A DNA stretch of 64,000 nucleotides from Escherichia coli. Its GTDB lineage: Bacteria; Pseudomonadota; Gammaproteobacteria; Enterobacterales; Enterobacteriaceae. This document shows positions 17,137 to 20,982 of this stretch, piece after piece. The stretch's first letter is position 1; each line of letters starts with the position of its first letter. The position numbers and the translations under genes were made by a program. The notes under the pieces are model-generated. The model saw nothing but the letters and a program-made list of their open reading frames with translations. It made no database searches and was not told the DNA's origin. The stretch lies in NCBI RefSeq assembly GCF_003334335.1, contig NZ_QOWQ01000004.1; one strand, given 5' to 3'.

Positions 17137-17827
17137 GTGCAAGTTTCTGCACCAGTGACTCAACCATCAGGCTGGACTGTTTAGCGGCAACAGCCAGGAA
17201 CTCATCGAAGCTAAGATGAGACTGTTGATCGGCCACGTCGGAGATGGCGCGTACGACAACAAACGGGACGTTGAAATTGTGGCAGACATGGGCGATTGCC
17301 GTCGCTTCCATCTCTACAGCAATGGCCTGTGGGAAGTTGTGGCGGATTTTCGCCAGACCAACAGAACCGTTGATGAAAGCGTCGCCGCTAACAATCAGGC
17401 CACGTACAGCGTTAAGATTCAGTTCGGCAATGCAGGCCTCAGCGGCAGCGATCAGTTTATCGTCAGCTTTAAAGCCTGCCGGACAGCCTGGTAACTGACC
17501 GTATTCATAACCAAATGCCGTGACATCCGCGTCGTGATAACGTGCTTCGTCCGAGACAACGATATCGCCCACTTTCAACGTTGGTGCCAGGCCACCGGCA
17601 GAACCGGTGTTAATAATCACATCTGGCTTGCAGTGTTCCAACAGCAAAGTGGCACCCAGCGCCGCAGCGACTTTACCGATGCCCGATTTCAGAAGCGCAA
17701 CCTCGGTTCCATTCAGTTGGCCGGTATAGATTTCGCAACCGCCGAGACTGATAGTTTGACGGTTTTCGATTTTGTCACGCAGCAGCGTAACTTCTTCTTC
17801 CATTGCACCAATGATGCCGATTTTCAT
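17129..17827 (-). CDS. mtnN: 5'-methylthioadenosine/S-adenosylhomocysteine nucleosidase
   Basis: 232-aa [16 protein letters not shown]...; its stop overlaps the btuF start by 8 nt. Confidence 0.95.
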
Positions 17828-17910
17828 AGATTTACTCGCGATAAGCCCGATTTGAAGGCATAGTTTACCATGCGCTTACGGGGAAGCGTATTTCTCACGC
17901 GGGAGAGGAC

Positions 17911-19428
17911 ATGGCACAGATTGATTTCCGAAAAAAAATAAACTGGCATCGTCGTTACCGTTCACCGCAGGGCGTTAAAACCGAACATGAGATCCTGCGG
18001 ATCTTCGAGAGCGATCGCGGGCGTATCATCAACTCTCCGGCAATTCGTCGTCTGCAACAAAAGACCCAGGTTTTTCCACTGGAGCGCAATGCCGCCGTGC
18101 GCACGCGTCTTACCCACTCGATGGAAGTCCAGCAGGTGGGGCGCTACATCGCCAAAGAAATTTTAAGCCGTCTGAAAGAGCTTAAATTACTGGAAGCATA
18201 CGGCCTGGATGAACTGACCGGTCCCTTTGAAAGCATTGTTGAGATGTCATGCCTGATGCACGATATCGGCAATCCGCCGTTTGGTCATTTTGGCGAAGCG
18301 GCGATAAATGACTGGTTTCGCCAACGTTTGCACCCGGAAGATGCCGAAAGCCAGCCTCTGACTGACGATCGCTGCAGCGTGGCGGCACTACGTTTACGGG
18401 ACGGGGAAGAACCGCTTAACGAGCTGCGGCGCAAGATTCGTCAGGACTTATGTCATTTTGAGGGGAATGCACAAGGCATTCGCCTGGTGCATACATTGAT
18501 GCGGATGAATCTCACCTGGGCACAGGTTGGCGGTATTTTAAAATATACCCGTCCGGCGTGGTGGCGTGGCGAAACGCCTGAGACACATCACTATTTAATG
18601 AAAAAGCCGGGTTATTATCTTTCTGAAGAAGCCTATATTGCCCGGTTGCGTAAAGAACTTAATTTGGCGCTTTACAGTCGTTTTCCATTAACGTGGATTA
18701 TGGAAGCTGCCGACGACATCTCCTATTGTGTGGCAGACCTTGAAGATGCGGTAGAGAAAAGAATATTTACCGTTGAGCAGCTTTATCATCATTTGCACGA
18801 AGCGTGGGGCCAGCATGAGAAAGGTTCGCTCTTTTCGCTGGTGGTTGAAAATGCCTGGGAAAAATCACGCTCAAATAGTTTAAGCCGCAGTACGGAAGAT
18901 CAGTTTTTTATGTATTTACGGGTAAACACCCTAAATAAACTGGTACCCTACGCGGCACAACGATTTATTGATAATCTGCCTGCGATTTTCGCCGGAACGT
19001 TTAATCATGCATTATTGGAAGATGCCAGCGAATGCAGCGATCTTCTTAAGCTATATAAAAATGTCGCTGTAAAACATGTGTTTAGCCATCCAGATGTCGA
19101 GCAGCTTGAATTGCAGGGCTATCGGGTCATTAGCGGATTATTAGAGATTTATCGTCCTTTATTAAGCCTGTCGTTATCAGACTTTACTGAACTGGTAGAA
19201 AAAGAACGGGTGAAACGTTTCCCTATTGAATCGCGCTTATTCCACAAACTCTCGACGCGCCATCGGCTGGCCTATGTCGAGGCTGTCAGTAAATTACCGT
19301 CAGATTCTCCTGAGTTTCCGCTATGGGAATATTATTACCGTTGCCGCCTGCTGCAGGATTATATCAGCGGTATGACCGACCTCTATGCGTGGGATGAATA
19401 CCGACGTCTGATGGCCGTAGAACAATAA
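17911..19428 (+). CDS. dgt: dGTP triphosphohydrolase (HD domain)
   Basis: 505-aa ORF with HD-domain motif (..[10 protein letters not shown]..). Confidence 0.93.
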
Positions 19429-19483
19429 CCAGGCTTTTGTAAAGACGAACAATAAATTTTTACCTTTTGCAGAAACTTTAGTT

Positions 19484-19513
19484 CGGAACTTCAGGCTATA
19501 AAACGAATCTGAA
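19484..19513 (+). promoter_or_regulatory. Sigma-E (RpoE)-dependent degP promoter
   Basis: -35 cGGAACTT (19484-19491), 16-nt spacer, -10 TCTGAa (19508-19513), about 45 nt before the degP ATG. Confidence 0.8.
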
Positions 19514-19557
19514 GAACACAGCAATTTTGCGTTATCTGTTAATCGAGACTGAAATAC

Positions 19558-20982
19558 ATGAAAAAAACCACATTAGCACTGAGTGCACTGGCTCTGAGTT
19601 TAGGTTTGGCGTTATCTCCGCTCTCTGCAACGGCGGCTGAGACTTCTTCAGCAACGACAGCCCAGCAGATGCCAAGCCTTGCACCGATGCTCGAAAAGGT
19701 GATGCCTTCAGTGGTCAGCATTAACGTAGAAGGTAGCACAACCGTTAATACGCCGCGTATGCCGCGTAATTTCCAGCAGTTCTTCGGTGATGATTCTCCG
19801 TTCTGCCAGGAAGGTTCTCCGTTCCAGAGCTCTCCGTTCTGCCAGGGTGGCCAGGGCGGTAATGGTGGCGGCCAGCAACAGAAATTCATGGCGCTGGGTT
19901 CCGGCGTCATCATTGATGCCGATAAAGGCTATGTCGTCACCAACAACCACGTTGTTGATAACGCGACGGTCATTAAAGTTCAACTGAGCGATGGCCGTAA
20001 GTTCGACGCGAAGATGGTTGGCAAAGATCCGCGCTCTGATATCGCGCTGATCCAAATCCAGAACCCGAAAAACCTGACCGCAATTAAGATGGCGGATTCT
20101 GATGCACTGCGCGTGGGTGATTACACCGTAGCGATTGGTAACCCGTTTGGTCTGGGCGAGACGGTAACTTCCGGGATTGTCTCTGCGCTGGGGCGTAGCG
20201 GCCTGAATGCCGAAAACTACGAAAACTTCATCCAGACCGATGCAGCGATCAACCGTGGTAACTCCGGTGGTGCGCTGGTTAACCTGAACGGCGAACTGAT
20301 CGGTATCAACACCGCGATCCTCGCACCGGACGGCGGCAACATCGGTATCGGTTTTGCTATCCCGAGTAACATGGTGAAAAACCTGACCTCGCAGATGGTG
20401 GAATACGGCCAGGTGAAACGCGGTGAGCTGGGTATTATGGGGACTGAGCTGAACTCCGAACTGGCGAAAGCGATGAAAGTTGACGCCCAGCGCGGTGCTT
20501 TCGTAAGCCAGGTTCTGCCTAATTCCTCCGCTGCAAAAGCGGGCATTAAAGCGGGTGATGTGATCACCTCACTGAACGGTAAGCCGATCAGCAGCTTTGC
20601 CGCACTGCGTGCTCAGGTGGGTACTATGCCGGTAGGCAGCAAACTGACCCTGGGCTTACTGCGCGACGGTAAGCAGGTTAACGTGAACCTGGAACTGCAG
20701 CAGAGCAGCCAGAATCAGGTTGATTCCAGCTCCATCTTCAACGGCATTGAAGGCGCTGAGATGAGCAACAAAGGCAAAGATCAGGGCGTGGTAGTGAACA
20801 ACGTGAAAACGGGCACTCCGGCTGCGCAGATCGGCCTGAAGAAAGGTGATGTGATTATTGGCGCGAACCAGCAGGCAGTGAAAAACATCGCTGAACTGCG
20901 TAAAGTTCTCGACAGCAAACCGTCTGTGCTGGCACTCAACATTCAGCGCGGCGACAGCACCATCTACCTGTTAATGCAGTAA
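19558..20982 (+). CDS. degP: Periplasmic serine endoprotease/chaperone DegP (HtrA): trypsin-like domain plus two PDZ domains
   Basis: 474-aa ORF with signal peptide and catalytic GNSGGAL motif. Confidence 0.95.
   Translation: MKKTTLALSALALSLGLALSPLSATAAETSSATTAQQMPSLAPMLEKVMPSVVSINVEGSTTVNTPRMPRNFQQFFGDDSPFCQEGSPFQSSPFCQGGQGGNGGGQQQKFMALGSGVIIDADKGYVVTNNHVVDNATVIKVQLSDGRKFDAKMVGKDPRSDIALIQIQNPKNLTAIKMADSDALRVGDYTVAIGNPFGLGETVTSGIVSALGRSGLNAENYENFIQTDAAINRGNSGGALVNLNGELIGINTAILAPDGGNIGIGFAIPSNMVKNLTSQMVEYGQVKRGELGIMGTELNSELAKAMKVDAQRGAFVSQVLPNSSAAKAGIKAGDVITSLNGKPISSFAALRAQVGTMPVGSKLTLGLLRDGKQVNVNLELQQSSQNQVDSSSIFNGIEGAEMSNKGKDQGVVVNNVKTGTPAAQIGLKKGDVIIGANQQAVKNIAELRKVLDSKPSVLALNIQRGDSTIYLLMQ

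Follow-up and report, generated by a model that had tools for sequence, protein, structure and literature searches.

The dgt–degP intergenic region of Escherichia coli is very probably the textbook degP control region, which combines a sigma-E promoter with an upstream CpxR site and a thermometer-related leader

The 64,000-nucleotide stretch of Escherichia coli DNA analysed here, referred to below as the window (NCBI RefSeq assembly GCF_003334335.1, contig NZ_QOWQ01000004.1), carries dgt and degP in the same orientation, separated by 129 bp (dgt end 19428, degP first base 19558). RefSeq annotation of E. coli assigns the segment 19300-19700 to the end of dgt, encoding a dGTPase, and the beginning of degP, encoding the serine endoprotease DegP. 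Of 5426 complete E. coli genomes, 5409 contain this segment at an identity of at least 99%, and 5424 contain the dgt–degP intergenic region (window 19436-19557). A combined scan of 19200-19800 for sigma-70 promoters and terminators returned no matches, and the scanned segment thus contains neither a dgt terminator nor a canonical sigma-70 promoter. There is little doubt that the interval corresponds to the textbook region controlling E. coli degP, consisting of a sigma-E promoter, an upstream CpxR site and an mRNA leader of the heat-sensing type. The region is a known one and contains nothing new; what is added below, namely the leader matching RF02700, the conserved block beyond the CpxR box and the TATAAA within the spacer, is likewise known or modest. 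A search of the full-text literature for the sequences of the promoter and the CpxR box gave one match only, a knockout primer. The features of the region are listed in Table 1.

Table 1. Features of the dgt–degP region in window coordinates, with distances from the degP transcription start and conservation in the 79-species alignment.
Feature	Position	Strand	Relative to +1	Mean majority-base frequency	Basis and remarks
CpxR box degP2, GTAAATTACCGTCAG	19289-19303	+	-229 to -215		curated, Table S1 of PMC9600279; inside dgt
dgt stop codon, TAA	19426-19428	+			ORF 17911-19428 and RefSeq dgt annotation; upstream limit of the intergenic region
Segment just past dgt	19429-19436	+		0.51	
Phylogenetic footprint, TTGTAAAGACG..CAATAAATTTTTAC.TTTT	19437-19468	+	-81 to -50		79-species alignment
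TTGTAAAGACG	19437-19447	+		0.96	part of the footprint
CpxR box degP1, GTAAAGACGAACAAT	19439-19453	+	centred at -72		curated; GTAAA (19439-19443) and degenerate direct ACAAT (19449-19453)
CAATAAATTTTTAC	19450-19463	+		0.97	part of the footprint
Inverted TTTAC	19459-19463	+	-59 to -55		invariant in 79/79 species; candidate extended CpxR contact, UP-like A/T element or site of another factor
Stretch directly 5' of the -35 element	19470-19484	+		0.70	
Sigma-E -35 element, GGAACTT	19485-19491	+	-33 to -27	0.97	exact match
Sigma-E spacer, 16 nt	19492-19507	+			between GGAACTT and TCTGA
TATAAA, sigma-70-like -10	19497-19502	+			inside the sigma-E spacer; candidate htrAp2 equivalent with a putative start near 19511
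Sigma-E -10 element, TCTGA	19508-19512	+	-10 to -6	0.94	3/5 match to TCAAA
degP transcription start, A	19518	+	+1		Kim 2012 start-site table; base invariant across 79 species
degP 5' leader, HtrA fourU RNA thermometer homologue	19518-19563	+			Rfam RF02700, 77 bits
degP (htrA) coding sequence	19558-20982	+			ORF; annotated serine endoprotease DegP

The core promoter, GGAACTT-N16-TCTGA, spans 19485-19512. Searched on both strands, the 64 kb contain no other exact match to GGAACTT-N15-17-TCNNA, a pattern that occurs on average 0.43 times in mononucleotide shuffles; with up to one mismatch allowed, the full sigma-E pattern has one match in the window against 0.28 expected. Rhodius 2006 (PMC1312014) describes sigma-E promoters as a GGAACTT element followed by a strongly preferred 16-nt spacer (range 15-19) and a discriminator of 5 or 6 nt, with 26 or 27 nt between the -35 element and +1, a start at A or G and A/T-rich DNA upstream. 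It gives TCAAA, with a conserved C, as the regulon-wide -10 consensus and counts DegP as a member of the core sigma-E regulon. The E. coli sigma-E promoter of that study and the one observed here are the very same promoter, identical in sequence in E. coli genomes.

The genome-wide start-site map in the supplement of Kim 2012 gives a sole start for degP, at NC_000913:180844 on the plus strand, with a 40-nt leader and a flank ending in ...TCTGAAGAACA. NC_000913 position 180884 (degP) corresponds to window 19558, which places this start at 19518. Agreement between the transcription start and the proposed -10 element had been set beforehand as a test by which the promoter assignment could be refuted; the mapped start lies 5 nt past TCTGA and 26 nt from the -35 element, consistent with that assignment. 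The 16-nt spacer, the discriminator, the distance from the -35 element to +1 and the A start all fall within the spacings of Rhodius 2006, and the 30 bases 5' of the -35 element (19455-19484) are 73% A+T.

The initial annotation of this DNA, made from the sequence alone, had described an exact fit with the consensus for sigma-E. The description applies to the -35 element and to the 16-nt spacer but not to the -10 element, in which TCTGA shares the T, the conserved C and the final A with TCAAA. This departure at two of five positions is kept across genera: the -10 element reads TCTGA in 66 of the 79 species aligned, TCTTA in seven and TCTCA in three, and the -35 element reads GGAACTT in 61, GGAACTA in 12 and TGAACTT in six. 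TCTGA is a consensus only in the older sense, for which degP itself served as a founding example. On the evidence of its motifs and their spacing we read GGAACTT-N16-TCTGA as a sigma-E promoter starting at A19518; its dependence on sigma-E is taken from the literature.

Elsewhere in the window, a sigma-E-like GGAACTA-N16-TCGAA is present at 35666-35693 (+) inside rseP, about 0.9 kb upstream of bamA, and may be a known internal bamA promoter. A start at NC_000913:181772, which Kim 2012 assigned to cdaR with a 691-nt leader, corresponds to window position ~20446 (+) inside degP and would be a degP-internal start.

The conservation of the region was assessed by phylogenetic footprinting, in which the upstream regions of 79 Enterobacteriaceae species were aligned and the mean majority-base frequency was calculated for each segment (Table 1). 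Both core promoter elements are deeply conserved, and so is a 32-bp block further upstream, in which none of the 79 species departs from GTAAA, CAAT or TTTAC, in contrast to the drifting flanks. The three motifs are laid out as GTAAA-N5-ACAAT-N5-TTTAC (19439-19463), and GTAAA-N15-TTTAC has a single occurrence in the window. As TTTAC does not vary in any of the 79 species, the selection acting on it is real.

Two CpxR sites at degP, degP1 and degP2, both credited to De Wulf 2002, are given in Table S1 of a study of the CpxR regulon from 2022 (PMC9600279). The first of these lies within the conserved block. Its invariant GTAAA and CAAT show purifying selection on the box, a signal that by itself does not identify the protein responsible. 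In degP1, as in the CpxR box GTAAA-N5-GTAAA (De Wulf 2002), the first half-site is perfect and the gap has the canonical 5 bp; unlike in the canonical box, its second half-site, ACAAT, matches GTAAA at only two of five positions, and its score is near the bottom of those of curated sites. When a CpxR weight matrix was trained on the 39 curated sites that do not belong to degP, 37 of these scored higher than the degP1 box, which received a weak 6.4 bits, and 152 positions in the 64-kb window scored at least as high as the box. The pentamers GTAAA and TTTAC have 172 occurrences in the window between them (2.7 per kb), which alone is not above chance. These pentamers owe their significance to conservation and curation and not to the letters themselves.

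Two pentamers, GTAAA and an inverted TTTAC, had been put forward in the initial annotation as possible CpxR half-sites that do not form the canonical direct repeat. GTAAA was placed correctly at 19439-19443 and opens the curated degP1 box; its curated partner, however, is the direct, degenerate ACAAT and not TTTAC. The position given for TTTAC, 19460-19464, is one base off and reads TTACC (Table 1). The region indeed contains no GTAAA-N5-GTAAA. A weight-matrix scan, which had been proposed as a check, recovers degP1 as the weak match described above, but no box that includes TTTAC.

The annotation had also assumed dual control of degP by sigma-E and Cpx, and published data agree. In addition to belonging to the core sigma-E regulon, degP is induced 26.6-fold with cpxA24 and 32.4-fold by NlpE overproduction, the latter only 6.4-fold without cpxR, and its expression changes by log2 -2.2 and -2.5 in a cpxR deletion. 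CpxR ChIP-exo did not place degP among the direct targets, even though the cpxR deletion lowered its expression. As only about 12 direct-target genes were called in that experiment, its sensitivity was limited, and we take the missing degP call to reflect this rather than absent binding. For the Cpx dependence of degP, as for the curated box, we rely on the literature.

The second curated site, degP2, is a stronger match to the CpxR matrix than degP1 (12.3 bits, equalled or exceeded at 10 window positions) and is located within dgt. Conservation at its third codon positions is 0.53, compared with a mean of 0.57 for dgt, and the sequence of the box differs in nearly every species. We rejected degP2 as a conserved element because its synonymous-site conservation is no more than expected for coding sequence.

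The best match to the CpxR matrix in the window is GTAAATCTATGAAAA at 17821-17835 (-), with 16.6 bits, at the start of mtnN in the divergent mtnN–dgt region. It also appears in the 2022 genome-wide CpxR screen (score 15.7) and is not a curated site. The curated skp site, GTAAAACCTGGTAAG at 39021-39035 (+), scores 15.1 bits; as it was part of the training set, this only confirms that the window holds the skp locus.

Conservation at degP continues for about 15 bp past the curated CpxR box, up to the inverted TTTAC, so that the box accounts for only half of the deeply conserved upstream block. One explanation, which we consider unlikely, is that CpxR covers the entire block. GTAAA-N5-ACAAT-N5-TTTAC would then represent three pentamers in a 10-bp phase, of which the outer two are inverted, and TTTAC would be a true contact; CpxR could bind as two dimers, or as one dimer in either orientation that shares the central pentamer. 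The 32-bp block is about twice as long as one 15-bp box, TTTAC and the intervening CAATAAATTTT vary as little as GTAAA among the 79 species, and the GTAAA-N15-TTTAC arrangement has no second copy in the window. A box opening with the minus-strand GTAAA would have ACAAT, in its minus-strand reading, as second pentamer at N5. The corresponding minus-strand 15-mer, GTAAAAATTTATTGT, however, scores below 3 bits with the CpxR matrix, and TTTAC is absent from both curated CpxR site lists. CpxR is an OmpR/PhoB-type response regulator. Regulators of this family bind direct repeats in a head-to-tail arrangement, and an inverted half-site would be atypical for them.

The downstream half of the conserved block may have a different role, although we regard this, too, as doubtful. 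On this account, CAATAAATTTTTACCTTTT (-68 to -50) is no CpxR site but an UP-like A/T element contacted by the C-terminal domain of the polymerase alpha subunit, or a site for a nucleoid protein or another regulator, and would set the basal strength of the sigma-E promoter or the bending of the DNA between CpxR and polymerase. The tract is A/T-rich and invariant and holds the palindrome AAATTT. According to Rhodius 2006 (PMC1312014), the DNA upstream of sigma-E -35 elements is A/T-rich with peaks at -48/-49 and -57/-58, resembling the rrnB UP element. The invariant tract, however, has its centre near -60, upstream of where the proximal UP subsite lies, and the stretch directly 5' of the -35 element is poorly conserved and reported as the least conserved part of the region. 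No specific factor emerged for the tract.

A TyrR-like reading of TGTAAA...TTTAC was also considered. A TyrR box needs a gap of 6 bp and the gap here is 15 bp, and the reading was rejected. The preferred assignment within the block remains the curated degP1 box, with TTTAC and the A/T tract as conserved sequence that may extend the CpxR contact or serve a second factor.

The sigma-E spacer contains a further candidate element. TATAAA matches the sigma-70 -10 hexamer at five of six positions, and each of these positions has a majority-base frequency of 0.80-1.00 in the 79 species. The sigma-70 scan of 19200-19800 found no -35 match upstream of it. Salmonella htrA has a second transcription start with a 47-nt leader, 7 nt upstream of the sigma-E start (PMC5602114), and the Kim 2012 supplement gives a Klebsiella start at the G of TCTGA with 25 reads, compared with 11 at the sigma-E start. 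TATAAA as a sigma-70 -10 element would fit both of these second starts, the corresponding E. coli promoter being putative.

These observations raise the possibility, which we hold only tentatively, that part of the Cpx activation of degP proceeds through an overlapping, htrAp2-like promoter of the sigma-70 type, with TATAAA as its -10 element, no -35 element and a start near 19511. TATAAA is conserved within a spacer that is not strongly read by sigma-E, activator-dependent promoters typically lack a -35 element, and the second start is observed in Salmonella and outnumbers the sigma-E start in Klebsiella. Danese is said to have found in 1995 that Cpx-mediated degP transcription is only partly dependent on sigma-E, which would fit such a promoter. 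Against it, the scan described above recognizes no sigma-70 promoter, and 180844 (window 19518) is the only degP start given for E. coli in the Kim 2012 table, which has no such entry near 19511. In addition, Rhodius 2006 (PMC1312014) describes a weak spacer conservation tied to the sigma-E -10 motif, which could explain part of the signal. We keep the sigma-E promoter starting at A19518 as the E. coli degP promoter in what follows.

Salmonella htrA is transcribed from a set of promoters, p1, p2 and p3 (Lewis 2009, summarized in PMC5602114). The 40-nt leader of E. coli corresponds to that of Salmonella htrAp3, and the E. coli sequences TATAAA and TATTAT (19330-19335) are located where the -10 elements for the Salmonella 47-nt and 215-nt leaders would be. 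Unlike in Salmonella, the E. coli data of Kim 2012 contain only the p3-equivalent start, and the p1 and p2 equivalents are putative. TATTAT (+ strand) lies within dgt, where it encodes Tyr-Tyr; its synonymous positions are unusually conserved, with values of 0.87 and 0.95 compared with a mean of 0.57, and the 15-nt windows around it are among the highest-ranking in the final 370 bases of dgt. Its placement is that of the -10 element of an equivalent of htrAp1, the promoter of the Salmonella 215-nt leader, with a start near 19343. The centre of degP2 would be about 47 bp upstream of this putative p1 start.

The last 40 bases of the 19436-19557 interval are occupied by a homologue of the HtrA fourU RNA thermometer, which the initial annotation had missed. 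The Rfam model RF02700 matches over its full length (positions 1-46 of 46) with a score well above the gathering score of 52 (E 2.6e-17), and it opens at the same base as the mapped transcription start. In Salmonella, the 40-nt htrA leader folds into a hairpin in which the Shine-Dalgarno sequence is paired by four U and which melts between 30 and 42 °C, as established by SHAPE, mutagenesis and reporter assays (PMC5602114); for this behaviour we rely on the published work. The E. coli leader resembles the Salmonella enterica htrA thermometer (RF02700; Klinkert 2012; Choi 2017, PMC5602114) in its position between start site and start codon, its 40-nt length, a fourU opposite the Shine-Dalgarno sequence, a bulged C and a 5-nt loop. 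It is identical to the homologue of S. enterica subsp. arizonae at 43 of 46 bases. In the predicted E. coli stem, 19522-19529 and 19531-19534 would pair with 19540-19551, placing the fourU (19525-19528) opposite the Shine-Dalgarno GAGA (19545-19548) and leaving the C at 19530 bulged.

The two leaders differ in the lower part of this stem. E. coli has a C at 19549, where the family consensus is U, and this U-to-C change breaks a pair by opposing the C to A19524 in an A·C mismatch. The stability of the leader was judged by minimum-free-energy values and pairing probabilities. At 37 °C, the predicted fold of the E. coli leader has -3.0 kcal/mol (z 0.87), no better than shuffled sequence; the Salmonella homologue reaches -5.8 kcal/mol. 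For the Shine-Dalgarno sequence, the E. coli prediction gives an unpaired probability of about 0.5 between 25 and 42 °C, which would leave it half open even at 25 °C, whereas the value for Salmonella is at most 0.08. As judged from the RF02700 match, the homology of the E. coli leader to the HtrA thermometer is firm; the folding predictions suggest that its function as a thermometer is possibly attenuated.

An analysis of 52 distinct leaders gave no covariation (paired cells 75.4% compared with 75.3% in shuffles; two double-sided pair changes compared with 3.9 expected). As these leaders are too similar to one another, this result does not argue against the helix. RF02700 was found in the homologues of Escherichia, Salmonella, Citrobacter, Enterobacter, Intestinirhabdus and Kluyvera, and scored above threshold in none of the 13 other genera sampled. 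In many genera, among them Klebsiella, Kluyvera, Pluralibacter and Atlantibacter, 6-7 nt such as TAGTCAC are inserted after TCTGA and before the conserved ACAGCAA of the leader, which changes the distance from the start site to the thermometer sequence.

With high confidence in the model as a whole, we read the region as the known control of degP in three layers, formed by the sigma-E promoter, CpxR and the thermometer-homologous leader. RNA polymerase containing sigma-E, a sigma factor of the envelope-stress response, would recognize GGAACTT and TCTGA, 16 bp apart, and initiate at A19518. Under envelope stress sensed by Cpx, phosphorylated CpxR would bind the weak tandem GTAAA-N5-ACAAT inside the 32-bp block and boost degP transcription. 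The distance between the CpxR box and the core promoter suggests recruitment from upstream, and we infer that CpxR probably acts through the alpha subunit of the polymerase. In the leader, following the Salmonella model, UUUU would pair with the Shine-Dalgarno GAGA at low temperature and the hairpin would melt on heating; whether it still does so in E. coli is made less certain by the predicted fold.

A broader reading combines several of the alternatives above. The block at -81 to -50 may be a composite operator, bound by CpxR in two orientations or as two dimers, or by CpxR together with a second factor or an alpha contact, and it could act on the sigma-E promoter as well as on an overlapping promoter of the sigma-70 type with a start near 19511. 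Separately, the htrA thermometer of Escherichia may have been largely disabled by the single U-to-C change at 19549. Taken jointly, we consider these propositions quite unlikely.

As the classic reporter for both envelope-stress pathways, degP makes this promoter a reference case and not a discovery. The case shows that sigma-E promoters can be recognized from raw sequence, as they were in the initial annotation. What our analysis adds to the known control region is a small number of testable refinements: an upstream block that is half explained by the curated CpxR box, a conserved sigma-70-like -10 hexamer within the sigma-E spacer, and an RNA thermometer whose E. coli copy is predicted to be much weaker than that of Salmonella.
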